Counted from the stretch's first letter, positions 8,034 through 36,570 are shown. The stretch is 49,959 bases of DNA from Candidatus Nealsonbacteria bacterium (GCA_043819385.1 JBDREW010000023.1:1-49959), one strand, 5' to 3'. Notes: generated by a model from the letters alone, not told the origin. Program-made: numbers and translations.

Positions 8034-8070
8034 CTGAAAGTAAAAAAGTTGAAAAAGAGATTGGAAAAGG

Positions 8071-8165
8071 GACGCTCCTCTTTTAAGACTAAAAAAACGT
8101 TCCTCTTTTAAGACTATAAAAAACGCTCCTCTTTTAAAACTAAAAAAACGCTTCTCTTTTAGCTA
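8071..8165. repeat. Four tandem ~26-bp repeats (ACGYTCCTCTTTTAAGACTAAAAAA)
   Basis: Copies at about 8071, 8097, 8123 and 8148, immediately 3' of the stop of the large secreted protein gene. On the minus strand each unit reads AAAAGAGGAGCGTTTTTT. Confidence 0.8.
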
Positions 8166-14890: not shown

Positions 14891-14913
14891 TTTTTGATAT
14901 TATATGGTATAAT
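14884..14913 (+). promoter_or_regulatory. Strong sigma-70 promoter with extended -10 (TTGACA-18-TGGTATAAT), cassette 1
   Basis: TTGACA at 14884-14889 and TATAAT at 14908-14913, preceded by TGG. The stretch TGGTATAATATaGGcAGTAAATTA is nearly identical to 28145-28168. Confidence 0.7.
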
Positions 14914-14968
14914 ATAGGCAGTAAATTAAAAAATAGCTTCTCTAAACCCAATAAAAAGGATATTTCAG

Positions 14969-15226
14969 ATGCATGGTCAACAATGTCGTGACTACCCTGC
15001 CTGTCAGCTCTGTGGATGTCTTGATTGTGAAACTCCTGATTCTCATGATGAGCAGGCTGAGTTTCAAAAAGAACAAGAAATACTCATGACTGACGATGCC
15101 TTATTATGTGAAGAATTTGCACGTTTGATGGAGTTAGGTTATCCAGAAGATGAAGAAGATTTCGATGATTCTGAACTTGATTGGACTTTAATTCCAAGTC
15201 CTTTTGTCAAGAATCCTAATCAATGA
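14969..15226 (+). CDS. Small (85 aa) acidic protein with a Cys-rich N-terminus, opposite-strand cassette 1
   Basis: AAGGA lies 8 nt before the ATG. Six Cys fall in the first 21 aa (CRDYPACQLCGCLDC), followed by a D/E-rich tail. My hand count gives about 39% G+C, clearly above the flanks. The ORF has its own promoter and terminator. Confidence 0.5.
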   Translation: MHGQQCRDYPACQLCGCLDCETPDSHDEQAEFQKEQEILMTDDALLCEEFARLMELGYPEDEEDFDDSELDWTLIPSPFVKNPNQ

Positions 15227-15275
15227 AACCCCTTTGATCTTGACAACTAATCATCAATATCAAGTTATTTCACCC

Positions 15276-15310
15276 AAAGCCCTACGATATTATCAAAGGG
15301 CTTTTTTTAT
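15276..15310 (+). terminator. Conserved terminator, cassette 1
   Basis: AAAGCCCTACGATATTATCAAAGGGCTTTTTTT. It belongs to the same sequence family as 28482-28514 and 31888-31918. Confidence 0.7.
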
Positions 15311-15312
15311 TT

Positions 15313-18138: not shown

Positions 18139-18184
18139 TTACGGAGAGGTACTCTCCGGAGCTCCGGAGAGCACCTCTCCGTAA
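18139..18184. repeat. 46-bp near-perfect palindrome built from two ACGGAGAG-NNN-CTCTCCG hairpins
   Basis: TTACGGAGAGGTACTCTCCGGAG|CTCCGGAGAGCACCTCTCCGTAA, with one mismatch between the arms. Confidence 0.9.
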
Positions 18185-18263: not shown

Positions 18264-18316
18264 GAGACCCGACCTCTAAAAAACTTCCCCTCCCTCTCGA
18301 AGAGAGGTCGGGGCTC
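18264..18316. repeat. GC-rich palindromic intergenic repeat (family copy)
   Basis: GAGACCCGACCTCT-aaaaaacttcccctccctctcga-AGAGAGGTCGGGGCTC. Confidence 0.85.
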
Positions 18317-18410
18317 TTTTTAGCTTTTCCTCTTCCTTATTTTTAATTTAAATAAAAAAAACGGAGAATTATTTCTCCGTTTACTTTGTTTGTTTGGTTA
18401 TTTATTATTT

Positions 18411-18856: not shown

Positions 18857-18953
18857 CTTACGGAGAGGTGCTCTCCGTAAGCTCAAATCCCCTTTAACTA
18901 AACTTACGGAGAGCATCTCTCCGTAGCTCTAACGGAGAGGTGCTCTCCGTAAG
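18857..18953. repeat. Three further ACGGAGAG-NNN(N)-CTCTCCGT hairpins
   Basis: CTTACGGAGAGGTGCTCTCCGTAAG (18857-18881), CTTACGGAGAGCATCTCTCCGTAG (18903-18926) and AACGGAGAGGTGCTCTCCGTAAG (18931-18953). Confidence 0.9.
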
Positions 18954-19028
18954 CTCATGGTCTTCAAATTAAAGTTGCGGGGAATAAATAGTTGCGGGGG
19001 ACTGTTCCCCGCAACTTTATTACATACA

Positions 19029-19781: not shown

Positions 19782-19862
19782 CCATCACAACCAGTCCCGC
19801 CTTCTAAGCATATGAATTAACATTTAGCATAGAAGGCGGGATGATGTAAGGGCAAGAAAAAA
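19782..19862. repeat. ~80-bp hairpin-containing repeat, copy 1 (the partner is at 27212-27292, inverted)
   Basis: The 12-bp stem TCCCGCCTTCTA / TAGAAGGCGGGA (19795-19806 / 19830-19841) has a 23-nt loop. The flanks CCATCACAAC and GATGTAAGGGCAAGAAAAAA are also conserved. Confidence 0.85.
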
Positions 19863-22197: not shown

Positions 22198-22250
22198 GAG
22201 GTCGGACCTCTAAAAAAACTTCCTCTCCCTCTCGAGAGAGGTCGGGGCTC
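22198..22250. repeat. GC-rich palindromic intergenic repeat (family copy)
   Basis: GAGGTCGGACCTCT-aaaaaaacttcctctccctctcg-AGAGAGGTCGGGGCTC, followed by the TACCAGCTTTCCCC tail shared with other copies. Confidence 0.85.
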
Positions 22251-22284
22251 TACCAGCTTTCCCCTACTTTCCCATTTTAATTTT

Positions 22285-22701
22285 CTATCTCTTAATTTTA
22301 TAAATCAACATTTCTAACAAATTTTTAACTTCTTTTTCAGCTTGATTTTCTGATTTGCTTTGAACAAATTTTTGCCACTGATTTAATATCTCTTCATCAT
22401 CTAAATCTCTTACTAAATTTTCTATTTCTAATCTATCTTCAAAATCTACTTCTCCTTCTGCTTTTAAAACTTTACCAATAAATACAGCTGTAAAATTTAA
22501 AACTTTTTCATTAATTTTACATGATTCATCTTTACTTTTCACTTTCTCTAAATTATCTCTTGTATAAAAATACCCAGCTCCAAAAAATATATTTCCAAAT
22601 AATAATATCATAACTATAATAACCCAAAATAACATTACTGGACTCTTTGGTTTTTGAATTGTTTTATCTACTTTCAAACTCTTAAAATCTGGCAATTTCA
22701 T
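22285..22701 (-). CDS. Membrane-anchored hypothetical protein (138 aa)
   Basis: One TM helix (VMLFWVIIVMILLFGNIFFGAGYFY) and a helical acidic C-terminus. Confidence 0.5.
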   Translation of the reverse strand: MKLPDFKSLKVDKTIQKPKSPVMLFWVIIVMILLFGNIFFGAGYFYTRDNLEKVKSKDESCKINEKVLNFTAVFIGKVLKAEGEVDFEDRLEIENLVRDLDDEEILNQWQKFVQSKSENQAEKEVKNLLEMLIYKIKR

Positions 22702-24632: not shown

Positions 24633-24673
24633 TTTAATTTTTGATTTTTGATTTTTCTCTCCCTCTCCTCCCC

Positions 24674-24726
24674 GAGACCCGACCTCTACAAAACCTCTCT
24701 TCCCTCTCGAAGAGAGGTCGGGGCTC
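24674..24726. repeat. GC-rich palindromic intergenic repeat (family copy)
   Basis: GAGACCCGACCTCT-acaaaacctctcttccctctcga-AGAGAGGTCGGGGCTC, with flanks CTCCCTCTCCTCCCC and TACCAGCTTTCCCCC. Confidence 0.9.
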
Positions 24727-24786
24727 TACCAGCTTTCCCCCTCTCTTTTAATTTCATTTTTATGTTTTTTATTTTTTATTACTTTT

Positions 24787-25908
24787 TTATTTAACATTTT
24801 TCAATCCAATAATTTTTAAAACTGATTTATCGATTTGTGTTTCTGAAACTTGATTATTTTCTAAGGCCTTTTTTAACGCTAAAAATCCTTTCTCTGCCTC
24901 TATTCTCCAACCAGAAAAAATTAATATATCTACTCCTGCTTTAACAGGCAAAGAAACAATTTCATTTAAAGTAAACTCATCTAATAAAGAATTCTGGGAC
25001 AAATCATCAGAAATTATTAAATAATTACCTTTAATTTTTTCTTTTAAAAATTGAATTCCTTTTTTTGAAAGGGTAAAAGGTAAACTCTCATCTATTTCTT
25101 TATAAATAACATTTGAAGTCATTACCATTTCAGGCAAAATTTCTAAATCTTGAAATTGTGATATTTCAGGAATTGTTTCTTTTATTGCTAATTTCTCCTC
25201 TGGATTAAAAGAAATTCCTGTATATCCTGGAAAATGTTTTATTGAAGTAAAAATACCAGCATCTTTTTGTCCTTTAATTATATTTTCAGCTAATACTTTT
25301 ATTGTCTCTATATCTTTATGGAAAGCTCGCTCATAAATAAAATCATTTTTCTCACTAATATCTAATAATGGAGTTAAATTAAGATTAATTCCTAATTTTT
25401 TTAATTCCTCTCCCCTATCTTTTCCAATCTGATATGCTTCGTTTTTATTTCTAATTTCTGATTGAGGAACACTATAAAGCCAATCAACCCTAGAAACTAA
25501 TCCTCCTTCTTGGTCAACAGCAATAAATAAAGCTAATCCAGTATCATTTAAAGCTATTTCTTGCAAAGAACTTATTAACTTTTTTAATTGTGCTTCATCT
25601 TCAACATTTCTTTTTAATAAAAGTATTCCTCCGGGATGAATTTCTTTAACTAATTTTTCTATTTCAGGAGTTATTTCTGTTCCATCAAAACCAATTATAA
25701 ACATCTGTCCAATTTTTTGGTCTAAACTCAAACCATCTAATAATTTCTCATTTTCACTTAGCCCTGATTTGTTTTTTTCTTCTTTTTCTTCTTCTGTGCT
25801 TCCAAAATAAAAAACCTTGCTTTTTCCTGTTTTCGGTATTTTATAAACAACAAATAAAGCAATTAAGATTAAAAGAAATAAAAAGAAAACTATTTTAATA
25901 TGTTTCAT
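24787..25908 (-). CDS. nagZ: GH3 beta-N-acetylhexosaminidase (NagZ-like), membrane anchored
   Basis: 373-aa ORF. GQMFIIGFDG, VDQEGGLVSR and KHFPGYTG are GH3 N-domain signatures. Confidence 0.8.
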   Translation of the reverse strand: MKHIKIVFFLFLLILIALFVVYKIPKTGKSKVFYFGSTEEEKEEKNKSGLSENEKLLDGLSLDQKIGQMFIIGFDGTEITPEIEKLVKEIHPGGILLLKRNVEDEAQLKKLISSLQEIALNDTGLALFIAVDQEGGLVSRVDWLYSVPQSEIRNKNEAYQIGKDRGEELKKLGINLNLTPLLDISEKNDFIYERAFHKDIETIKVLAENIIKGQKDAGIFTSIKHFPGYTGISFNPEEKLAIKETIPEISQFQDLEILPEMVMTSNVIYKEIDESLPFTLSKKGIQFLKEKIKGNYLIISDDLSQNSLLDEFTLNEIVSLPVKAGVDILIFSGWRIEAEKGFLALKKALENNQVSETQIDKSVLKIIGLKNVK

Positions 25909-27211
25909 TTGATATTATCTTTTCAATATTATAAACGCCCTTTTTTTCTATTTTGATAAATCCTTCCATCGCTGCTTCGGCAAATCTTCCACCATTTATA
26001 CAATCAAAAAGCCATTGATCAACATAATTCGGATTGCCTTGTGCTATTCCTGACCCAACTCTTAAAAGCCATTTTCTATTTAAATCTTCTTGCGAACCGA
26101 TTGATGGAGCAATCATAATAGGCACACCTAATCCAGAATAAAAAGAAAGTTCACTTGGTTTTGTCCATAAAATATCTGTTTTTCGAAGTTTTTGATTAAA
26201 TTTATCAAAATATTTATAAATATCTTTGTCATATAATATTTCAATATTTTTATCTAAAACTGGTTTTAAACCAAGATGTTGAATTTCTTCCCAAAAATAA
26301 TCTCTTACTTTTTCTCTAATTCCTGCTGATAAAATTATTTTTATTTCTCCCTTTTTAATTCTTTCAGATAAATTTTTAACAAATCTAATTGCCATTTCTT
26401 TTTGTGCTCCAGCTCCTCCAATAGAAAATAATATTGTCAAAGGATGATCTGCCACTTTTGGTAATGGCCCTAAATTTATTTCAATCAATTTATTATATTT
26501 TTTACTATATTCTTTTTTAGGATCTAAATTGAAAAGACGATATCTTAAATCATTTTTTAAAATTTCCATTTCTTCTGTTCCAATGTTTTCTATTGGTAAT
26601 GGAAAACCAGTTAAAAAAATGTTTTTTGGTTTTACCCCATAAAGCTTTAATCTATCTCTTGTCCAAGAATTAGGAGCAAAATACTTAATTCTACTTTTCT
26701 TCGGATATAATGGGGCCCAAGCCCTAGCGATGTCAGCATCACAAATAACACAATAAATATCTCTGGGATAATCAAAAATTTCTGCCATAAAAGCTGATGT
26801 AAAAAATGTCGTTATAAACGGCACTTTCTTTTTTTTAAGTTTTTCAATCAAATGCTTGCCCCATTCTTTTTTGATAATAATAGAAAACATTTTCCTAAGA
26901 AGAAGACTTGACTTTGATAGATCTCTCCTTGGATAAAAATTAGGAATTTCTTGAATTTTATTGTAAAGATAAAAAATAAAATCACCTATAAAAGGAATTT
27001 TCTTAAATCTGGAAATAAATTCGTAAAAATTTCTGCTTGATTTCCAAATTTTCTTATCTTTTTCAGGAATTCCTTTATAGCTATTAGCATTTATAATCTT
27101 ATTGTCAAAAGCAACTTTTTTTAATGGATAAGCGGTTCTTTGATGACCATAACCCATATTAACTGCAACAACCCATGCTTTATTGTTTTTAATTGTATTT
27201 TTTTCTTCCAT
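25895..27211 (-). CDS. GT-B glycosyltransferase (GT28/MGDG-synthase-like)
   Basis: 438-aa ORF. N-terminal VAVNMGYGHQRTAYPL and the C-terminal half FSIGGAGAQKE...PSELSFYSGLGVPI resemble MurG/MGDG-synthase-type enzymes. It overlaps the nagZ-like gene by 14 nt. Confidence 0.6.
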   Translation of the reverse strand: MEEKNTIKNNKAWVVAVNMGYGHQRTAYPLKKVAFDNKIINANSYKGIPEKDKKIWKSSRNFYEFISRFKKIPFIGDFIFYLYNKIQEIPNFYPRRDLSKSSLLLRKMFSIIIKKEWGKHLIEKLKKKKVPFITTFFTSAFMAEIFDYPRDIYCVICDADIARAWAPLYPKKSRIKYFAPNSWTRDRLKLYGVKPKNIFLTGFPLPIENIGTEEMEILKNDLRYRLFNLDPKKEYSKKYNKLIEINLGPLPKVADHPLTILFSIGGAGAQKEMAIRFVKNLSERIKKGEIKIILSAGIREKVRDYFWEEIQHLGLKPVLDKNIEILYDKDIYKYFDKFNQKLRKTDILWTKPSELSFYSGLGVPIMIAPSIGSQEDLNRKWLLRVGSGIAQGNPNYVDQWLFDCINGGRFAEAAMEGFIKIEKKGVYNIEKIISNETY

Positions 27212-27292
27212 TTTTTCTTGTCCTTACATTATCCCGCCTTCTATGCTAAATGTTAATTCATACGCTTAGAAGGCGGGACTAGTTGTGATGGA
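27212..27292. repeat. ~80-bp hairpin-containing repeat, copy 2, abutting the start codon of the GT28-like gene
   Basis: Stem TCCCGCCTTCTA (27232-27243) / TAGAAGGCGGGA (27267-27278). The reverse complement matches 19782-19862 at about 90% by eye. Confidence 0.85.
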
Positions 27293-27322
27293 TTAATTTT
27301 CAAATTTTTAATTTTTCTATTT

Positions 27323-27343
27323 CTCTCCCGAGACCCGACCTCT
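27323..27343. repeat. Half copy (5' arm only) of the GC-rich palindromic repeat
   Basis: CTCTCCCGAGACCCGACCTCT without the 3' arm. Confidence 0.7.
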
Positions 27344-27424
27344 ATTATTAAAACTCATAAATTAAAACTCATAACTTTTTAAAATCTAAATTTCCCTAGC
27401 TTTCTCTTTTCTTCTCCCTCCCCC

Positions 27425-27476
27425 GAGCCCCGACCCCTAAAAAACTTCCTCTCCCTCTCGAGAGAGGTCAGGGCTC
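27425..27476. repeat. GC-rich palindromic intergenic repeat (family copy)
   Basis: GAGCCCCGACCCCT-aaaaaacttcctctccctctcg-AGAGAGGTCAGGGCTC. Confidence 0.85.
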
Positions 27477-27593
27477 TTTCCAGCTTTCACTCTTACTTTT
27501 TTTTAATTTTTTAAGTTTTTAAGTTTTTATTATTATATTTTAACCTTTTCAAAACCAAAATACAAGAAAAAAATGTTGAAAAGTTATAATAAT

Positions 27594-27622
27594 TTGACAT
27601 TATTTTAAAATTAAATTATTAT
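27594..27622 (+). promoter_or_regulatory. Sigma-70-type promoter TTGACA-17-TATTAT for the plus-strand RNA array
   Basis: TTGACA at 27594-27599 and TATTAT at 27617-27622. Confidence 0.55.
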
Positions 27623-27629
27623 TAAAAAT

Positions 27630-27745
27630 AGTTCTCTTCCCTGAAAGCAAGATAAGGGCTTGAAAAACAACAGAGAAATTAGCCCATCGGAAAAGCTTAC
27701 TAATGCTGTAAGAAAAACACCAGTCCCTTATCTTGCTTTTTATCC
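27630..27745 (+). ncRNA. Candidate small RNA M1 (12-bp closing helix, ~66-nt interior, U-tail)
   Basis: GCAAGATAAGGG (27648-27659) pairs perfectly with CCCTTATCTTGC (27726-27737), followed by TTTTTAT. There is an internal hairpin CTTAC-taatgct-GTAAG. No ORF. Confidence 0.4.
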
Positions 27746-27794
27746 TTATTGCGAAATATTTTTCGCAAAAAATTATAGTTCTTTCTATCTATAA

Positions 27795-27840
27795 AAGCTC
27801 TTGACAGAAACCTTCCCAGGTGCTCTCGTTTAGAGCTTTT
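27795..27840 (+). ncRNA. Module M2, a hairpin enclosing CTCTTGACA and CCCAGGTGCT, paralogous to 45683-45803
   Basis: AAAGCTCT (27795-27802) pairs with AGAGCTTT (27833-27840), then TTT. It shares the blocks AAAAGCTCTTGACA, CCCAGGTGCT and AGAGCTTTTTG with the rpsG-fusA spacer. Confidence 0.35.
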
Positions 27841-27842
27841 TG

Positions 27843-27933
27843 GGGGCTTAAGGTATGTCTGCATGAACGCTTATGCCAAAAGCTAACTCACGCAAGACAA
27901 AGGTATAACATCCCTTCCTTAAGTCCCCTTTTA
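27843..27933 (+). ncRNA. Candidate small RNA M3 (12-bp closing helix plus U-tail)
   Basis: GGGGGCTTAAGG (27843-27854) pairs with CCTTAAGTCCCC (27918-27929) with one mismatch, followed by TTTT. The interior is about 63 nt and has GTCTGC / GCAAGAC pairing. Confidence 0.4.
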
Positions 27934-27946
27934 AAAAAGTAGCAAG

Positions 27947-28037
27947 GGGGAAAGAGAGTTTTAAGAGAAAAAAATCGTAACTCTTTTTAGAGAACTTGTA
28001 GTTCTCAAACTCTTTAATTCTCTCTTTCCCTTTTTTC
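27947..28037 (+). ncRNA. Candidate small RNA M4 (11-bp closing helix plus U-tail)
   Basis: GGGAAAGAGAG (27949-27959) pairs with CTCTCTTTCCC (28021-28031), followed by TTTTTT. There is an internal hairpin GAGAAC-ttgta-GTTCTC. Confidence 0.4.
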
Positions 28038-28123
28038 TATAATTCTCATTTCCTTTAATATTTATAGTTCTTTATTTCTATCAAAAGACCTTGTAAAATA
28101 CTTGATCTTTTTTCTTTCAGATA

Positions 28124-28153
28124 TTGACAAATTATAGTTTATTGTGGTATAAT
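28124..28153 (+). promoter_or_regulatory. Strong promoter with extended -10 (TTGACA-18-TGGTATAAT), cassette 2
   Basis: TTGACA at 28124-28129 and TATAAT at 28148-28153. TGGTATAATATgGAtAGTAAATTA is nearly identical to 14905-14928. Confidence 0.7.
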
Positions 28154-28200
28154 ATGGATAGTAAATTAGCCCTTTCACTTCACTTTTGAGGAGATATGTA

Positions 28201-28461
28201 ATGACTACCAAAGAGTTTGCTTTCTTCGTCGCCGATTTGTGTATAGGCATAAAAAACTCTGCGCAATTCGAAGGAGGTTGTATTCGTTGTTGCAGTCAAA
28301 ATCCATTGTCCTTCGCCGAGATGGTTGCTAATCATCTTGATGATGAGAAACTCTATGATCTTACCCAAAAATTAGGTGGTGGAGATTTCCATCGCCTATG
28401 CCCTACGCCGAGAGAGTTTCTCACTGCCCTGTCGGAGGTTGTTTCTCCACTTGAGCCGTGA
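28201..28461 (+). CDS. Small (86 aa) acidic protein, opposite-strand cassette 2
   Basis: The ATG at 28201 is preceded by GAGGAG 7 nt upstream. The track ORF starts at a TTG at 28186. My hand count gives about 45% G+C. No homology recognised (contains CIGIK...GGCIRCC). Confidence 0.45.
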   Translation: MTTKEFAFFVADLCIGIKNSAQFEGGCIRCCSQNPLSFAEMVANHLDDEKLYDLTQKLGGGDFHRLCPTPREFLTALSEVVSPLEP

Positions 28462-28481
28462 ATTCTATCCATCTATTCTCC

Positions 28482-28514
28482 AAAACCCTGCGATACAATA
28501 TCAAGGGGTTTTTT
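28482..28514 (+). terminator. Conserved terminator, cassette 2
   Basis: AAAACCCTGCGATACAATATCAAGGGGTTTTTT. It ends 4 nt before the convergent comEC stop codon. Confidence 0.7.
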
Positions 28515-28517
28515 CTT

Positions 28518-30119
28518 TTAATAATTTAAAAATTTTAATTTTTGTTTTTTATTTAAATAATAAACTAATAAAGTTAAAATTAAATAATAAACTACAATCC
28601 AAAACCAATTAAAATTATCAATTGACTTTACTGCCCAATTTTTAGAGAAAAAATCTGTTATTTTCAATAAATAAAAAAGTAAAAACCAAACAGGAATAGA
28701 AAATATTAATCCTAAAAAACTCCAAATCATTCCGAGAAAAACAAAAATAAATCCAAAAATCATAATTAAAGGAACAATCGGCAAAATCAAGATATTAGTT
28801 AAAGGAGAAACTAATGAGACCTGCCCAAAATTATAAATTAAAATAGGAAAAGTAAAAATATATGCAGAAAATGTCATTATTAAGATATTATTGATATTAA
28901 TAATTATTTTATTTTTTCTTAAAAAATTTGGATATAGTTTTTGAAATAAATTTTTTAAAATAGGTCCAAAATTAATTATTCCAATTACAGCTAAAAAAGA
29001 AAGTTGAAATCCAACATCTCCCAACAAAAGTAAAGGATTAAAAAATAACATTACTGATCCAACAATTACTATTGTTCTTGAACTAATTGATTTTCTGCCT
29101 ACTTTTTGAGCCAAAAGAAAAAGCATACCCATTATTCCAGCTCTAATAGCTGAAACTTGCAAGCCAGTCATAACCACAAAAAGAAAAATAAGTATCACTG
29201 AAAAATAAAATGCTTGCCCGCGCCAAAATCCTAAACCAATCAACAAAGACATTAAAATACTTGATAAAATCACGATATGCATTCCAGAAACAGCCGTAAT
29301 ATGACGAATACCAGCAATATTTAATTTTTCTTTCATTTCTTGAGGAATTCTATTTTTATCACCTAAAATCATAGCTCCTAAAATAAATGCTTGTGAATAT
29401 TCAAGATTTTGATAAATATTCTTTCTTAATACTTCCTTAAACCCCAAAACCCTCCTATAAAACCTAGAGAATATAGAGACCCGATCTCTATACTGGCTAT
29501 TTTGGGTTTTAATTTCTGGATAATAAATTACTGAATATATTCCTGTTTTAGACAAATAATCCTTATAATTAAAATCATCAAAAATAATAGGAGTTTGTAA
29601 CTTTCCTTTAACTTTTAATCTATCTCCATGTTTATATTTCGGATATTTTCCAACAGTAATTAAAACTTTTTCTTTTTCAAAATTATTATACTCTAAAACA
29701 TCATATTCATTGCAAGATTCATTGCTAGGCCCGTCCTCGCAAACTTGCGAGGACGGGCCTAGCAATGTTTTTAAGCTCTCAACTCTAATAGTTAATTTTT
29801 GATTATTTTCTCTAATATCTGGTTCATCAATAATTATACCTGTTAAAATAACATCTCTTTCTAAATCATTATATTTCTCTAATTGATTATTTTTAATTTT
29901 TAATTCTGCTTTTTGATGTTGAAAAACTCCAAAATTTAAAAAAATTAAGCAAAAACTAAAAATAACTATTTTTTTAAATTTCCAGAAACCAATGATTAAA
30001 ATTATACTTGAAAATAAAATCAGTAATATTAAAAAATAAGGAATTACAAAAATAGAACTTAAAAAAATGCCTATTATAAAAAAGAGGCAAAAAATAAAAA
30101 AAATTCTTGACTTTGTCAT
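28518..30119 (-). CDS. comEC: ComEC/Rec2-family DNA internalisation channel (no metallo-beta-lactamase domain)
   Basis: 533-aa polytopic ORF. The N-terminal TM pair plus soluble OB-like segment and the Competence domain (AGIRHITAVSGMHI) are conserved. Confidence 0.85.
   Translation of the reverse strand: MTKSRIFFIFCLFFIIGIFLSSIFVIPYFLILLILFSSIILIIGFWKFKKIVIFSFCLIFLNFGVFQHQKAELKIKNNQLEKYNDLERDVILTGIIIDEPDIRENNQKLTIRVESLKTLLGPSSQVCEDGPSNESCNEYDVLEYNNFEKEKVLITVGKYPKYKHGDRLKVKGKLQTPIIFDDFNYKDYLSKTGIYSVIYYPEIKTQNSQYRDRVSIFSRFYRRVLGFKEVLRKNIYQNLEYSQAFILGAMILGDKNRIPQEMKEKLNIAGIRHITAVSGMHIVILSSILMSLLIGLGFWRGQAFYFSVILIFLFVVMTGLQVSAIRAGIMGMLFLLAQKVGRKSISSRTIVIVGSVMLFFNPLLLLGDVGFQLSFLAVIGIINFGPILKNLFQKLYPNFLRKNKIIININNILIMTFSAYIFTFPILIYNFGQVSLVSPLTNILILPIVPLIMIFGFIFVFLGMIWSFLGLIFSIPVWFLLFYLLKITDFFSKNWAVKSIDNFNWFWIVVYYLILTLLVYYLNKKQKLKFLNY
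29468..29496. repeat. AGAATATAGAG..CTCTATACTGG hairpin repeat located in frame inside comEC
   Basis: Stem TATAGAGA (29472-29479) / TCTCTATA (29485-29492). It shares its flanks with the 5837 and 5881 copies and encodes QYRDRVSIF. Confidence 0.8.
29720..29767. repeat. GC-rich 48-bp palindrome (23-bp perfect arms) in frame inside comEC
   Basis: CATTGCTAGGCCCGTCCTCGCAA-ac-TTGCGAGGACGGGCCTAGCAATG. It encodes LLGPSSQVCEDGPSN. Confidence 0.9.
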
Positions 30120-30141
30120 TTCTTTATATTATCATAAAATA

Positions 30142-30401
30142 TGCAAAGCATTCTCTTGTGTAACGAGGGGAAAGGAGAGATTCAAGCATTGCTCATCAAA
30201 GACAGAAAGCCTCGGAACCCGCTAGGAACCAATCCGACCATCTCACTTTGTTGGAAAAATTCTTAATCCTTCTTTCCCCTCTATTTTAGTTCTTTTCTTG
30301 AAGTTCTTTCGCTCAACTCAGGAACAAAATTTTACCACTACTGAGTAAACCCGCTCTTTTGTTCCCACCTTAAAGGCCTATATTCATAGGCCTATTTTTT
30401 T
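30142..30401 (+). ncRNA. Candidate structured plus-strand RNA(s) between comEC and nrdG
   Basis: Possible promoter TTGACT (30107-30112)-17-TATCAT. GAGGGGAAAG (30165-30174) pairs with CTTTCCCCTC (30272-30281) around a ~97-nt interior that is more G+C-rich than the background. Next come the competing helices ACTCAG / CTGAGT and GGAACAAAA / TTTTGTTCC. It ends in the strong terminator AGGCCTAT-attc-ATAGGCCT-ATTTTTTT (30374-30401). No ORF. Confidence 0.4.
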
Positions 30402-30492
30402 ATTATAAATGACAAATTATTTTTCTGCCCTTGACCAATTATTTATATATATTAAAATAAATAAAAGAACATTATTAATTTAAAATAAAAAT

Positions 30493-30582
30493 ATGGATGA
30501 CAAAGTTTCAGTTACAATAGCTATAATAGCATCACTTGTTGTTAGTTATTTACTTGGTTTTTTATCTGTAAATATTTTTTAA
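30493..30582 (+). CDS. Possible 29-aa hydrophobic micropeptide
   Basis: ATG..TAA encodes MDDKVSVTIAIIASLVVSYLLGFLSVNIF (one TM helix), followed by a hairpin terminator. There is no clear SD, so this is speculative. Confidence 0.2.
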   Translation: MDDKVSVTIAIIASLVVSYLLGFLSVNIF

Positions 30583-31918: not shown

Positions 31919-31971
31919 CTTTATTATAAATTTAAAATTACAAATTAAAAAAGAGAGAAGAAAGCTGGGAA

Positions 31972-32025
31972 GAGACCCGACCTCTCTTAGAGAGGGAGAG
32001 GAAGTTTTTTTAGAGGTCGGGTCTC
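31972..32025. repeat. GC-rich palindromic intergenic repeat, the only inverted-orientation copy
   Basis: GAGACCCGACCTCT-cttagagagggagaggaagttttttt-AGAGGTCGGGTCTC, with perfect 14-bp arms. The loop is the reverse complement of the loop in the other copies. Confidence 0.9.
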
Positions 32026-32109
32026 GGGAGAGGAATAGAAAAATTAAAAATTAAATTAAATAACCCTTTACAGGGTTATTATATCTTATTTCTAAAAAAT
32101 ACAAAAGAG

Positions 32110-35100
32110 TTAATTTTTTAAAACAAATTCTTTTCGTTCTTTGAATTCTTGCTTTTTACCAATATGCCATTGACCAACAGGACGTATGTATCCAACTATC
32201 CTTGAATAAACCTCACATGGCTGTTCAATAGCACATTTAGGACAATTAAAATGCTCACCTGACAAATACCCATGAGCAGGGCATATTGAAAATGTTGGAG
32301 TTAAAGTAATATACGGCAAATGATAATTTTCAAATACTTTTTTAACTAATGCTTTAGCCATTTGAGGATCATTTATTTTTTCCCCTAAAAACAAGTGGAG
32401 AACCGTACCACCACTATATTTACACTGAATATCGTCTTGAAGATCCAATGCTTTAAAAACATCATCAGTAAAACCAACCGGTAACTGAGACGAATTTGTA
32501 TAATAAGGGAATTCTTTTGTTCCAGCTGTAATAATATCTGGATATTTATCTTGATCAGCTTTTGCCTGCCTATAACTTGTTCCCTCTCCAGGGGTTGCTT
32601 CAAGATTATATAAATTACCAGTTTCTTCTTGATATTTTATTAATCTATCTCTCATAAATTCCAAAACTTCAATTGCAAACTTCTTTCCTTTTGGAGTTGT
32701 AGTTTGTTCTCCTAAAAAGTTTAAAAGTGCTTCATTCATTCCCATTAAACCAATTGTTGAAAAATGATTTCCAATATATGAACCTCTCATTTTTTTAACT
32801 GACTCTAAATAATATCTTGAATATGGATACAAACCCTTTTCCATAAAGTTGTCTAACGCCTTTCTTTTAATTTCTAAACTTTCTTTTGCTAAATCCATCA
32901 AACGTTCTAATCTGTCAAAAAATTCTTGTTTAGTTTTTGAGAGATAACCAATCCGAGGTAAATTTATTGTCACTACACCAATTGAGCCAGTCAAAGGTTG
33001 TGATCCAAAAAGTCCTCCTCCTCTCATGTATAATTCTTTATTGCTCAATCTCAATCTGCAACAATTAAAAGAAATCTGACCCAAAGAATGCAAAAATAAA
33101 TGATTTTTATTTAATTCTAAATCATAAAATTCTTTTAGTTTTTTAGAAATTTTCTTTTTAATTGACTTAACTCTAAGAATATAAATATCGCTATTCTTTA
33201 TTTTCAAACTTTCATTAGTATGAGCATTATATTTATCTATAGTATCAAAACCAATTGTTCGTGATTTTGAAAAACCAGGAATTTTTCTTCCATTTGTCAC
33301 AAAAGCAGGTGTTCTTTCTGAAATAATCGGATTATTAAGCCATCCATTATTTTCTTTTATTTTTGATTTGGCGTGTTGTATATAAATTCTCTGGCTATTT
33401 TTTCTTAATTTATAAGTAACTGGTTGTCCAATTAAAGAATAAAGCAAAACTAAATCCCTTGATAGCTCTAAATCATTTATATGAATTTCTTTTCTTTTAT
33501 CATAACCATCGCCCTTAAAATGAAATTCTAAAAAACTTTTAATAACTGATACTGGAGAATTAAATAAAATTTGGGGTTGTCTTCCATACTTTTTAAAACC
33601 GCTATTATATAATTTCCTTGATAGTTTTGTATTGTAAATATAAAGATAATAAGTATTATAACGAGGATCTTGTTTTTCTTTTCCCTCTAATCCAAAAACT
33701 TTTTTTATTAAAGATTTAACTAATTCTAAATTTTCAAAATCTCCTGTCCTAAAAGTAAATTGAAGACCTCTTGGTTCTCCATAATGAGTATAACCTTTTC
33801 TATTTTCAAAAAGATAATTTCCGTCAGCAACAAAATATCCTAAAATCTTTGCTAAATCTTCATTTAAAATAATATCATCATCTAATTCTTGATAAGTTTT
33901 TGACAAACTATTTTGAGCATTTTTGATAGAAAGAAGATAATCTCCTTTTTCAATATCCTTTGACCATTTCATTATAATTCCTTTTTCTGTAAAAACAGGA
34001 ATCGGATGTTTTGCTGAAAAAGTTGCTATTTTTCCATCTTCAGTAGTAATCTCTATTGTTTTTCTGTCAAAAACTCTTAAAAATCTTTTTACTGATGACC
34101 ATTCTGTTTTAAAAGTTTTAGGATTTAATGACAAAACTTCTAAACCTCCCTCTTTTTTACAATTTGTCCAGCCATACCTATCAAATTCTTTTGATTTATA
34201 CTTTTCAGCTACCTCTTTAATTGATAATCTTTTAATATTTTTAGAATTTCTAATTAAAACTTCTTCGTTTTTATCTAAACACATTGAACGAAAATCATCT
34301 GGATCCATATCTGATTTTACAAAATTTTGAAAATAATTAACTCCATATTTTGCAGTTGCTTCCCATAATGGCTCTAAATATGGATTATTCCAATCAAAAT
34401 CTTTTGTAATAGAAACTGTTGGGATAGGAAAAGTAAAAGGTCTTCCTTTTGCATCTCCTTCCATCAAAACCTCATAAAATACTTTATTAAAAATATTCAT
34501 TTCTTCCTGAAATTCATTATATGTTTCTTTCTGAGTTTTTCCTCCGATAATTACTGGCTGTTTACCTAAAGATGTAGGGGGTTTAATGTCTATGGTTGTA
34601 TTAAGGAAAGGAGTTTGAAAGCCGACCCTAGTCGGTACCATACAATTAAATAAAAATTCTTGCATTGCTTGTTTTACCTGAGCATAATTCAAATTATCGT
34701 ATCTAATATATGGAGCTAAAAGAGTATCAAAATTTGAAACAGCCTGAGCCCCTGCTGAATTTCCACACCAAGTAGCTTTACCTTTTCGTCTTACATAAAG
34801 AGTATGATTCGGCACCTCTAAACAATAAACTTTATCATTATATGCTATTTTTTTAATATTATCTTCTTCATTTTTAAATCTAAAATGCTTTGCTCTTGAA
34901 ATGCCAATATCAAACCAATGAAATTTTTCCTTTGTTCTTTTATAGATATTAGCACTCCATCCTAATTTTAAAACTATTTCCTGAACATCATCAGCTAATC
35001 TTTTACTTTTAGTAGAATATTCAATATTTCCATTACCTATGTATCCATCGCCTTTCATCATCCAATTAAATAAAATCTTTAATTGATTTTTAGACAAATT

Positions 35101-36570
35101 TTTAATTTCTTCTGGAATAAATTTATCTCCTGCTTTGCCAAATTGTTTTAAATATAGATATAATTGTTTATTGCTAATGTAAAATTCTAATTGTTTGCCT
35201 TGATCTTTTTTATTGTAATTAAAAGGTAATCTTTTTAAAATTTGTTCAAATTCATCTGCTGTTTTACCTTTATTCTGAGATATTCTTACTGCATATTCAT
35301 AATATGGATTTTTCCAACCCTCTCTATTCCTCTCTCTTAAATAAGTACATCCTTCAGCCACCCAAAAACCAAAAAAAGCTAACCAATCATTCATTTTTAT
35401 TTTCTTAGCTTTTATTTTTACATTTTCATAAACACTGTATCTACATTGTTTAATTCCAATCTCTGGCAATAGAAAACTTTCTTGTTTAACTGGAACCAAT
35501 TCATCAGCTGGAGATAATTCAAAAATACTTTCCAAAGAAGAAATAAATTGAATTTCCTGTTCTTCTCCTTGCCAAATTTTACTACCCTTAGGGATAAAAT
35601 GTTCGCTCACCTTGAAATCCTTAGCTTTAATAAATTTTCTTTTGTATAACCCCTCTTTACAGCGAGGACAATATTGATCAACCACCATATTATGATTTGG
35701 GGTTACCAATAAATCTAATTTCTTAGATTTAAAATTGTAAAGTTCGCCATTATAATTAAATTCATAAAAGTTACTTGGCTTTTGCAATTCAATCTCATCT
35801 GTTTCATTATTTAAAGTAAAAATCTCATCATCTTTTCTGACACTATAAAAATATTTCCATCCCTGTTTTGTTAAAACTTGAGTATCCTTACTATAACATT
35901 CACCTTGAACAGTATAAAAGAAATTTACTAATTGCCCTAAAGCAGTTCTGAAATGTTTTGCTGGTTTACATTCTAATTTTCCAGAAACACCTCCAAAACC
36001 ACGCTTTAATAAATCATAAAGATCCCAACCCATACAATAACAAGCTAAAATATCTAAATCATGAATATGAAAATCTTCGTTAGCGCCTGCTTCTCTCACT
36101 TCTTTAGGATAAATTTTATTCAACCAATATTTCTTAGAAATATGTGAAATTGTATGTTGATTTAATCCTTGTAAAGAAAAAGTCATATTAGCATTTTCAT
36201 ATATCTGCCAATCAAGTTCTTTCAAATAGCTATCTATTTTTTGGCTTGATTCGTCTAAAATTGAACCTGTTTCCCTTATTCTTCTTCTTTGCTCTCTATA
36301 TAAAATATATGATTTAGCTGTTTCAACTAAATCTTCTAAAATTAAAACCTCTTCAACAATATCTTGAATCTGCTCTACTTCAGGAATTTCATCTGTTTTA
36401 AATCTTCTGTTTATAAATAAAACTACTTTTTCAGTTGCTTTTTTTGTTTTTTCACCATCCCCTTCTCCAGCCGCTGTGATTGCTTTAAAAATAGCATCTG
36501 AAATTCTTTTTTCATCAAAAACTGTTAATTCTCCATTTCTTTTTTTAATTTTAGTAATATGATTTTCCAT
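32110..36570 (-). CDS. nrdD: Anaerobic (class III) ribonucleoside-triphosphate reductase interrupted by two inteins
   Basis: 1486-aa ORF. N-terminal ATP-cone (ITKIKKRNGELTVFDEKRISDAIFKAI), conserved GAQAVSNFDT and CCRLRL motifs, a C-terminal Zn-ribbon (CPAHG...CPKC) and the glycyl-radical motif SRIVGYIRP. The exteins sum to about 700 aa. Confidence 0.95.
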   Translation of the reverse strand: MENHITKIKKRNGELTVFDEKRISDAIFKAITAAGEGDGEKTKKATEKVVLFINRRFKTDEIPEVEQIQDIVEEVLILEDLVETAKSYILYREQRRRIRETGSILDESSQKIDSYLKELDWQIYENANMTFSLQGLNQHTISHISKKYWLNKIYPKEVREAGANEDFHIHDLDILACYCMGWDLYDLLKRGFGGVSGKLECKPAKHFRTALGQLVNFFYTVQGECYSKDTQVLTKQGWKYFYSVRKDDEIFTLNNETDEIELQKPSNFYEFNYNGELYNFKSKKLDLLVTPNHNMVVDQYCPRCKEGLYKRKFIKAKDFKVSEHFIPKGSKIWQGEEQEIQFISSLESIFELSPADELVPVKQESFLLPEIGIKQCRYSVYENVKIKAKKIKMNDWLAFFGFWVAEGCTYLRERNREGWKNPYYEYAVRISQNKGKTADEFEQILKRLPFNYNKKDQGKQLEFYISNKQLYLYLKQFGKAGDKFIPEEIKNLSKNQLKILFNWMMKGDGYIGNGNIEYSTKSKRLADDVQEIVLKLGWSANIYKRTKEKFHWFDIGISRAKHFRFKNEEDNIKKIAYNDKVYCLEVPNHTLYVRRKGKATWCGNSAGAQAVSNFDTLLAPYIRYDNLNYAQVKQAMQEFLFNCMVPTRVGFQTPFLNTTIDIKPPTSLGKQPVIIGGKTQKETYNEFQEEMNIFNKVFYEVLMEGDAKGRPFTFPIPTVSITKDFDWNNPYLEPLWEATAKYGVNYFQNFVKSDMDPDDFRSMCLDKNEEVLIRNSKNIKRLSIKEVAEKYKSKEFDRYGWTNCKKEGGLEVLSLNPKTFKTEWSSVKRFLRVFDRKTIEITTEDGKIATFSAKHPIPVFTEKGIIMKWSKDIEKGDYLLSIKNAQNSLSKTYQELDDDIILNEDLAKILGYFVADGNYLFENRKGYTHYGEPRGLQFTFRTGDFENLELVKSLIKKVFGLEGKEKQDPRYNTYYLYIYNTKLSRKLYNSGFKKYGRQPQILFNSPVSVIKSFLEFHFKGDGYDKRKEIHINDLELSRDLVLLYSLIGQPVTYKLRKNSQRIYIQHAKSKIKENNGWLNNPIISERTPAFVTNGRKIPGFSKSRTIGFDTIDKYNAHTNESLKIKNSDIYILRVKSIKKKISKKLKEFYDLELNKNHLFLHSLGQISFNCCRLRLSNKELYMRGGGLFGSQPLTGSIGVVTINLPRIGYLSKTKQEFFDRLERLMDLAKESLEIKRKALDNFMEKGLYPYSRYYLESVKKMRGSYIGNHFSTIGLMGMNEALLNFLGEQTTTPKGKKFAIEVLEFMRDRLIKYQEETGNLYNLEATPGEGTSYRQAKADQDKYPDIITAGTKEFPYYTNSSQLPVGFTDDVFKALDLQDDIQCKYSGGTVLHLFLGEKINDPQMAKALVKKVFENYHLPYITLTPTFSICPAHGYLSGEHFNCPKCAIEQPCEVYSRIVGYIRPVGQWHIGKKQEFKERKEFVLKN
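33064..34281 (-). mobile_element. Intein 2 (406 aa) with a LAGLIDADG homing endonuclease, inserted before the CCRL motif
   Basis: It starts FRSM|CLDKNEEVLI and ends FYDLELNKNHLFLHSLGQISFN|CCRL. LAGLIDADG motifs are ILGYFVADGNY and FLEFHFKGDGY. Coordinates were derived by residue counting (aa 764-1169) and checked against codons. Confidence 0.85.
34759..35898 (-). mobile_element. Intein 1 (380 aa) with a LAGLIDADG homing endonuclease
   Basis: It starts VQGE|CYSKDTQVLT and ends VYCLEVPNHTLYVRRKGKATWCGN|SAGAQA. LAGLIDADG motifs are LAFFGFWVAEGC and LFNWMMKGDGY. It spans aa 225-604, and the codons TGT at 35896-35898 and AAT at 34759-34761 were verified. Confidence 0.85.

Follow-up and report, generated by a model that had tools for sequence, protein, structure and literature searches.

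Genomes of the Candidate Phyla Radiation (CPR; Patescibacteria) are tiny and tightly packed, and little is known of their regulatory RNAs. The question addressed here is what is encoded at positions 27,594 to 28,123 of a 49,959-nt stretch of DNA from Candidatus Nealsonbacteria bacterium (GCA_043819385.1 JBDREW010000023.1:1-49959; the whole stretch is hereafter called the window), within a 1.3-kb gap between a gene for a DUF6938 protein and comEC. The initial annotation had described an array of four hairpin-closed, U-tailed candidate RNAs and left three interpretations side by side, namely a family of small RNAs (sRNAs), one large RNA, or serial terminators. Of these, a stand-alone noncoding RNA gene is favoured by our analysis; a large ornate RNA is unlikely, and terminators alone do not account for the locus. 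Judging from the sequence, and with slightly better than even confidence, we read the locus as a lineage-restricted, fast-evolving RNA gene made of tandem hairpin-closed, U-tailed modules, and as a probably undescribed RNA locus.

Modules and transcription signals of the array

The array opens with a promoter (P1), and modules M1 to M4 follow on the same strand (Table 1). The promoter reported in the initial annotation is present, and so is a U-run behind every module (TTTTT after M1 and M2, TTTT after M3 and TTTTTT after M4). M1, M3 and M4 are of one type, with a long closing helix around an interior. In M1, the 12-bp helix described earlier is the core of a perfect 15-bp inverted repeat, and the interior is A-rich and mostly unstructured (folding z score +0.4, G+C 0.36). 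The helices of M3 and M4 were also recovered, off by 1 from where they had been placed: the arms of M3 are GGGGGCTTAAGG (27842-27853) and CCTTAAGTCCCC (27917-27928), and in M4 GGGGGAAAGAGAG (27946-27958) pairs with CTCTCTTTCCC (28020-28030), a helix that reaches up to 15 bp on extension.

Folding of the region 27625-28045 as a whole gave a z score of -6.7, with none of 100 shuffled sequences folding as well, and the individual modules lie at about -4.2 to -4.4. We also counted closing helices of at least 11 bp with at most one G.U pair and a loop of 30-115 nt. Three were observed, against 0.03 expected from 1000 dinucleotide shuffles, 971 of which contained none, 28 one and a single one three. 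The modules are richer in G+C than the flanking spacer (0.40-0.50 vs 0.08-0.25), as had been noticed before, and the interiors alone, M4 excepted, have 36-52% G+C. The remaining intergenic gaps in the window mostly have 15-32% G+C, with three at 35-38%.

The linkers carry sequence elements of their own. Five of the ten copies of TAGTTCT in the window lie in or beside arrays, all on the + strand: at 27629 (the start), 27776 (after M1), 27999 (in M4), 28065 (after M4) and 30287 (after M5, a stand-alone module described below). The direct repeat mentioned in the initial annotation was found in the linkers after M1 and after M4, and a small hairpin at 27749-27768 had been missing from the earlier list.

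Table 1. Coordinates of the array, its counterparts and neighbouring features (positions refer to the window unless a locus is named)
Feature	Coordinates	Strand	Description
Promoter P1	27594..27622	+	TTGACA-17-TATTAT; 11/12 consensus positions; divergent from DUF6938 gene
UAGUUCU leader copy	27629..27635	+	At about the transcription start
M1	27644..27739	+	Perfect 15-bp inverted repeat 27644-27658 / 27725-27739; 66-nt interior, then U5; z -4.2
Small linker hairpin	27749..27768	+	8 bp, arms UUGCGAAA/UUUCGCAA; z -3.7 for 27740-27800
Linker direct repeat, copy 1	27768..27796	+	AAAAATTATAGTTCTTTCTATCTATAAAA; 83% identical to 28057-28085
M2	27793..27840	+	Short hairpin; inner part + U5 is a canonical intrinsic terminator (27822-27836 + TTTTT); z -4.4
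M3	27842..27928	+	12-bp closing helix with one G.U; 63-nt branched interior, then U4; z -4.4
M4	27944..28034	+	13-15-bp purine/pyrimidine helix GGGGGAAAGAGAG/CUCUCUUUCCC; 61-nt interior, then U6; z -4.3
Linker direct repeat, copy 2, with decayed counterpart of the terminal terminator	28057..28112	+	AAAAGACCU...
Second promoter, after M4	28124-28153	+	TTGACA-18-TATAAT with upstream TG; consensus
Unit beyond M4	28124-28512	+	Consensus promoter, GAGGAG ribosome-binding site, 86-codon ORF (at 28201), bidirectional terminator
DUF6938 gene	25895-27211	-	438 aa; one flank of the 1.3-kb gap
ComEC gene	28518-30119	-	Other flank of the 1.3-kb gap
M5 unit, beyond comEC	30107..30400	+	Promoter 30107-30135, M5, UAUUUUAGUUCUUU, further hairpin, terminator 30374-30393 + U7
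M5	30165-30281	+	Arms GAGGGGAAAGGAG/CUUCUUUCCCCUC; 117-nt rod; z -4.35
tRNA promoter and leader	45682..45803	+	Not an array module; three ordered blocks in common with M2
L041 promoter	L041 9933..9905		TTGACT-17-TAAAAT; position and strand equivalent to P1
L044 promoter	L044 3256..3227		TTGACA-18-TAGGAT with upstream TG; position and strand equivalent to P1

Beyond comEC, M5 appears from its sequence to be a fifth, paralogous module with its own promoter and terminator, and its arms cross-pair with those of M4 over 11 bp. Directly after the M5 unit, at 30431-30582 (+), there are a promoter-like site and a 29-codon hydrophobic open reading frame (ORF; MDDKVSVTIAIIASLVVSYLLGFLSVNIF) without a ribosome-binding site; comparable junctions of relatives contain small membrane-peptide genes (L041 7700-8000; L051 3779-3877).

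A separate observation concerns the M4 interior. Just beyond the stop codon of a 1235-aa surface-protein gene, four tandem units of 25-28 nt (ACGCTCCTCTTTTAAGACTAAAAAA) occupy 8050-8165, and one of them agrees with the M4 interior (27959-27991) in 27 out of 33 nucleotides.

Conservation in related lineages

A protein search identified two closer lineages, represented by P0003 (77% identity) and P0002 (78%), and the DUF6938 protein is 72-78% identical among the array-bearing lineages. The order ComEC-gap-DUF6938 is kept in loci L041 and L042, and loci L043 to L046 have a different left-hand neighbour. Their contigs come from the TARA sample SAMEA2619974 / ERZ2773065 (L041), from ERZ11848503 (L042) and from ERZ27251120 and JGI 3300009788, 3300028610 and 3300024265 (L043-L046). 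In all of them a promoter, followed by three hairpin-closed modules and then by a strong terminator, is found on the strand divergent from DUF6938. The arrays fold with z scores of -7.5 (L041) and -3.9 (L044), and the G+C content of the three arrays exceeds that of their loci by 8-13 points (36.5 vs 28.2%, 44.3 vs 33.0% and 45.8 vs 32.3%). The 5' arms of the modules are rich in purines, and the 3' arms, behind which the U-tract follows, in pyrimidines (GGGAAAGAGGG/CCCUCUUUCUC, GGGAAGAGAG/CUCUCUUCCC, GGGAAGGGGG/CCCCCUUCC and GAGAAAGGGG/CCCCUUUCUC). L044 has AAAATAGTTGT at the leader position equivalent to the UAGUUCU of the window and CAGCUCUUU in both linkers, and in L041 AAUAGUUCUUUC precedes the terminator. 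This terminal terminator (AAAAGACCU...AGGUCUUUU) is strong in L041 and L044, and the window, L041, L043 and L044 all have the same core, AAAAGACCT.

The closing helices change between modules and lineages and remain complementary. Arms of the same module form helices of 12.4 bp on average, compared with 7.1 bp for arms of different modules. Paired changes include GAGAG/CUCUC (M4 of the window and module A of L044), GAGGG/CCCUC (module a of L041) and GGGGG/CCCCC (module B of L044), and there is a paired indel (AAA/UUU vs AA/UU). The 5' end of M4 is like those of L044-A and L041-a (GGGAA(A)GAG.GUUU). Because the neighbouring protein is only 72-78% identical, neutral intergenic DNA would be expected to be scrambled at this distance. 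It seems unlikely that a G+C-rich unit of 0.4-0.5 kb is junk when its promoter, helices and terminator are kept while the neighbouring protein is about 75% identical. The initial annotation had named as refuting signs the absence of modules from close relatives and, as a mark of plain repeat debris, helices without compensatory changes; close relatives do carry modules, and their arms vary yet stay complementary.

Only the ends of the three arrays align globally, the interiors being unalignable, and MAFFT placed the modules out of register. L041 and L044 have three modules each and the window four to five; those of L044 resemble recent tandem duplicates with near-identical linkers. These data bear directly on whether the array could be one large multi-domain ("ornate") RNA that acts as a single folded particle, as the initial annotation had allowed. 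In favour of such an RNA, L041 and L044 each have one promoter and one strong terminal terminator, and a length of 350-490 nt together with so much structure is reminiscent of OLE-, ROOL- or raiA-sized RNAs. However, module number (3 vs 4-5), size and internal topology differ between lineages, no inter-module pairing or loop motif is conserved, M5 exists as a stand-alone single-module unit, and the large-RNA models of Rfam give nothing. We therefore consider a single particle quite improbable.

The conserved signals also speak to the third of the earlier interpretations, a terminator stack or insulator whose modules only halt transcription between comEC, the divergent promoter pair and the glycosyltransferase gene (the DUF6938 gene; see below). 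A + strand U-tract ends every module; M2 and the terminal hairpins of L041 and L044 have the canonical form (a short G+C-rich stem, a 3-8-nt loop and a U-tract) and score as terminators; and the arrays of L041 and the window face a convergent comEC, so that antisense read-through would need blocking. The stems of M1, M3, M4 and M5, however, enclose 61-91 nt before the U-tract and thus lack the canonical form of an intrinsic terminator, and stems around interiors of 46-97 nt, the range found in the arrays, make poor terminators. In the relatives, only the array's own promoter is there to be stopped, for which one 25-nt terminator suffices, and this conserved, dedicated promoter drives nothing else. 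Moreover, transcription of the two flanking genes uses the - strand, where the modules offer no U-tracts, and 350-490 nt of G+C-rich sequence is costly where gaps elsewhere measure about 100 nt. Termination as the sole role of the modules is thus rather unlikely.

We also searched more widely. When 52 sources (the window and 51 loci) were scanned by pattern and helix, comparable purine-arm modules turned up only at the DUF6938 junction and in M5. The genome-contig scan, in which the closest relatives of the window were Patescibacteria metagenome-assembled genomes, returned only relatives of about 60% identity, without a gap; a metagenome scan with ComEC reached relatives of at most 54% identity, with no similarity to the array. 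No array was found at the loci of P0004, P0005, P0006, P0008, P0009 and P0012. An IMG/VR pattern scan and a phage BLAST yielded nothing, or unrelated single hairpins. Two other CPR contigs have a long hairpin element in common (CCCGUAGUGAAUUU...; L004 2001-2221 and L055 2940-3000), which suggests REP-like families (named after repetitive extragenic palindromic elements, REP) crossing lineages.

Strand and coding capacity

In the closing helices read on the promoter strand, 17 G.U appositions were counted against 2 A.C appositions. Since transitions in purine and pyrimidine arms should yield both types equally, this 17:2 ratio points to RNA pairing on the promoter strand. The sole arm single-nucleotide polymorphism (SNP) between the L043 and L044 haplotypes converts G-C into G.U. 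Folding energy was tried as a criterion for the choice of strand and proved uninformative (-382 vs -384 kcal/mol for whole modules on the two strands). Taken together, the conserved promoter, the U-tracts, the terminal terminator of the relatives and the G.U:A.C ratio agree with the plus-strand orientation proposed in the initial annotation, and support the + strand as the predicted RNA strand.

The stretch is noncoding, as had been suggested. No ORF is conserved between lineages, and those of 25 aa or more in the three arrays have no relation to one another and no good starts. The SNPs in module A of L043/L044 would all be nonsynonymous. A small-peptide or type I toxin gene was rejected, as no conserved ORF with a ribosome-binding site is present.

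M2 and the tRNA locus

The idea of four modules of the same design holds for M1, M3 and M4 but not for M2, which is a short terminator derived from a tRNA leader and was not found in L041 or L044. Its hairpin proper spans 27793-27838 and is followed by U5. The initial annotation had pointed out that blocks of M2 recur in order at the rpsG-fusA locus, and they do so at 45682-45695, 45761-45770 and about 45790-45803. A compensatory change of an outer helix between the two loci had also been proposed, and this part does not hold. The first shared block at the tRNA locus is the -35 region of the tRNA promoter (TTGACA, 45690-45695), upstream of the transcript, and the last is the 3' half of a local terminator-like hairpin, so the proposed outer helix cannot form in the RNA of that locus. 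The most fitting reading of M2 is that this lineage has copied part of the tRNA leader and that the copy, by chance, provides a canonical terminator; it may end many P1 transcripts after M1.

The tRNA gene itself (45690-45898, +) has its own consensus promoter and lies antisense between rpsG and fusA. The tRNA has 72 nt (class I size) and the anticodon UAG (Leu); its anticodon stem contains a C.C mismatch, and its T-loop (UGCUAAU) is odd. It was missed by the whole-window Rfam run at the gathering threshold and scored 35.1 bits in a local run. Its leader of about 100 nt (45740-45768) is complementary to the 5' half of the tRNA and encloses a terminator-like hairpin (z -6.6).

RNA gene or palindromic DNA

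Several results count against an RNA gene at this locus. Transcription is itself predicted from the signals described above. The counterpart of the terminal terminator in the window has decayed to a weak fold (-4.1 kcal/mol, z +0.7), and transcription could stop at M2, before it reaches M3 and M4. The closing helices were picked within each sequence, and "covariation" among unalignable paralogues is weaker than column-wise covariation. Whole-module energy and whole-module G.U counts favour neither strand. The interiors have no k-mer in common beyond chance and no conserved motif. Finally, the array was found in three lineages only. Because relatives at 67-71% protein identity are without it and have at the junction a gap of 16-106 nt, a gene for a small membrane peptide or an 82-aa gene that is unrelated, the array appears, on this comparison, to be dispensable, to sit at a variable hot spot and to be confined to a small group.

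Some of these points would be expected if the modules were selfish or neutral palindromic DNA (similar to miniature inverted-repeat transposable elements, REP or ERIC) piled up in a permissive hot spot, with no RNA function of its own. The ComEC/DUF6938 junction is indeed variable (arrays in some lineages, elsewhere a gap of 16 nt, a gene for a small peptide or the unrelated 82-aa gene), the folding of whole modules is strand-symmetric, the modules of L044 look like recent tandem duplicates, and the genome is rich in dispersed hairpin repeats, several of which adjoin the array at 27212-27560. REP/BIME, ERIC, Correia/NEMIS and RUP elements are imperfect intergenic palindromes of 70-130 nt with many dispersed copies and a conserved sequence. 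Like the modules, they are hairpin-forming palindromes at the RNA level that can carry or abut promoters and terminators, and they may form clusters (BIMEs). The array modules differ from them in being unique in the 50 kb, mutually different, restricted to a single locus and biased in G.U pairs on one strand. A blastn search with 27212-28518 against the 50-kb window returned copies for 27212-27560 only and none for M1, M3 or M4; these three and M5 each occur once in the 50 kb, as against 2-6 times for the true dispersed repeats. Module termini differ and target-site duplications are absent. The promoter, U-tracts and terminator are conserved around the modules in three lineages, the 17:2 asymmetry would not be expected of DNA palindromes, and G+C is far above the intergenic level. 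Palindromic debris is thus unlikely, although it retains some weight. If it were the answer, the locus would be a recombination hot spot beside comEC and an example of hairpin elements that mimic RNA genes in AT-rich genomes.

Comparison with known RNA systems

The Rfam scan proposed in the initial annotation found no family match: with Rfam 15 at the gathering threshold, there was no hit in the window, both gaps, L041 or L044. The families covered include 6S, SRP, RNase P, tmRNA, Y RNA/YrlA, OLE, ROOL, GOLLD, raiA, HEARO, self-cleaving ribozymes and riboswitches. At E values up to 10, only sub-threshold plant or animal miRNA-precursor models and a few unrelated sRNA or cis-regulatory models appeared, the best being nse_sRNA with 23.7 bits against a gathering score of 75. 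The array resembles OLE, ROOL, GOLLD and raiA RNAs as a long, G+C-enriched, structured noncoding region of an AT-rich genome with its own promoter and terminator; it differs from them in matching no model and in being modular and variable rather than of fixed architecture.

Another comparison is offered by RNAIII of Staphylococcus aureus, a multi-hairpin regulatory RNA transcribed divergently from a neighbouring operon. Like RNAIII, the array would give a stand-alone stem-loop transcript of several hundred nucleotides with pyrimidine-rich tracts and a promoter back-to-back with that of the neighbour. There is, however, no sequence or structural homology and no Rfam match, the C/U tracts of the array are mostly paired in closing helices instead of lying in loops, and the array is without an embedded peptide ORF.

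Two further candidates were rejected. A CRISPR array was dismissed, as 27594-28125 contains no identical direct repeats of 25-36 nt at regular spacing. A CsrA-type sponge was also set aside: GGA motifs are mostly inside stems, and no interior k-mer is common beyond chance.

The closest described architecture in these bacteria is the tandem interspaced guide RNA (TIGR) stem-loop array, although three of its defining features fail here. TIGR stem-loop arrays of Patescibacteria combine variable self-complementary stems, variable interiors and a rho-independent terminator, and the published unit definition requires an interior of at most 43 nt (Faure et al. 2025, PMC12045711; bioRxiv 10.64898/2026.09.09.750476). 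The present array likewise has tandem units in variable palindromic stems, variable interiors, one transcription unit and a rho-independent terminator in CPR hosts, and it might be a TIGR-type guide-RNA array with a Tas (Nop-domain) partner encoded elsewhere. Its interiors, however, measure 46-97 nt, many of them being base-paired rods, and there are only 3-5 units. When the TIGR unit rule was re-coded (boxC-N8-10-boxD twice with a flanking stem, both strands), it found no unit in the arrays of the window, L041 and L044 or in the M5 unit, and its application to the whole window gave one isolated, chance-level candidate (1195-1228). TIGR-Tas requires an adjacent Tas, whereas the constant neighbour of the array models as a GT-B glycosyltransferase. 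No Tas or Nop gene lies beside the array in the three lineages, the called genes near L041 and L043/L044 being housekeeping genes, and a Pfam/NCBIfam scan of window ORFs of at least 90 aa (overlapping short ORFs left out) detected no Nop, IS110 or RuvC domain. A TIGR array is thus highly improbable.

A possible mechanism

If the locus is a stand-alone RNA gene, as we favour, a sigma-70-type promoter lying back-to-back with that of the GT-B gene would fire away from that gene and produce a primary transcript of about 0.35-0.5 kb. Each module, as it emerges, would form a domain of 65-120 nt, either a long hairpin or a branched fold, closed by a helix of 10-15 bp whose purine-rich 5' arm (GGGAAAGAG-like) pairs with a pyrimidine-rich 3' arm (CUCUUUCCC-like) directly followed by the U-tract. 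These helix and U-tract ends may serve as leaky terminators, as protectors of 3' ends, or both, and the pyrimidine-rich linkers with UAGUUCU(UU)/CAGCUCUUU are candidate cleavage or protein-binding sites. Through partial termination or processing, the locus would give stable hairpin RNAs of about 70-120 nt as a nested or processed set, possibly acting in trans. Selection would act on the helices and transcription signals, not on the interior sequence.

A bolder version, which we consider improbable, is that the locus represents a polycistronic hairpin-RNA class new to CPR. The transcript would be cut at UAGUUCU-type linkers into units of about 70-120 nt, the closing helix and U-tail would form a handle for a dedicated protein encoded elsewhere, and the fast-changing interiors would provide guide, decoy or sponge specificity. 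The logic would be analogous to that of TIGR or CRISPR arrays, but with no relation to them. If expressed, the array would be a new RNA family in a phylum with almost no described noncoding RNAs, and its modular scaffold, a conserved closing helix with a free interior, could be used in seeking a partner protein or nuclease.

Genomic setting of the array

The window has 28% G+C, and its genes are nearly all on the - strand, including both genes that flank the array. Its gene content (rpsL-rpsG-fusA, ftsA/ftsZ, nrdD/nrdG, hisS and clpB) marks it as chromosomal DNA of a CPR/Patescibacteria bacterium. Exact-protein look-ups for the window proteins returned no record. The DUF6938 neighbour is, on modelling evidence, a predicted GT-B glycosyltransferase: a profile search matches a GT28 enzyme, and its AlphaFold model (pLDDT 74.5, pTM 0.75) has Foldseek matches to WaaG, MGD1 and other GT-B structures.

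Beyond the array, after M4, a second promoter precedes the 86-codon ORF. Its 86-aa product has no homologue in any search and is missing from the relatives, and its G+C content at third codon positions is 0.40 vs 0.12-0.16 in the genes of this genome. Within the ORF there are repeats of about 88 nt and a closing helix of 11 bp (28344-28354 / 28413-28423). Either it is an orphan gene acquired recently, or it is not a gene. We also considered the array as a leader of this ORF and rejected it: the ORF has its own consensus promoter, is an orphan absent from relatives and has foreign codon G+C.

Distinct from the array, copies of repeats that are dispersed through this genome make up the first 350 nt of the gap (27212-27560). 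Two families of these intergenic repeats were recognized, at 27212-27560, 18264-18349, 22205-22287, 24653-24809, 31922-32042, 42571-42684 and 19782-19861. The first has a hairpin core (GAGACCCGACCUCU...AGAGGUCGGGGCUC) and six copies with 77-87% identity. The second is an 80-nt element with a hairpin (UCCCGCCUUCUA...) that contains a promoter-like site and occurs, with 95% identity and in inverted orientation, upstream of two different genes.

Other features of the window

Three further features were recorded elsewhere in the window. A gap of 422 nt upstream of clpB (14891-15312) has 35% G+C, high for an intergenic region of this genome, and gave no Rfam hit. A 116-aa gene of unknown function is flanked by a GUUGCGGGG hairpin and by clustered, near-identical CUUACGGAGAGG...CUCUCCGUAAG hairpins (18139-18183 and 18857-19019). 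At 32110-36570 (-), the anaerobic ribonucleotide reductase NrdD is split by an intein with a LAGLIDADG endonuclease domain.

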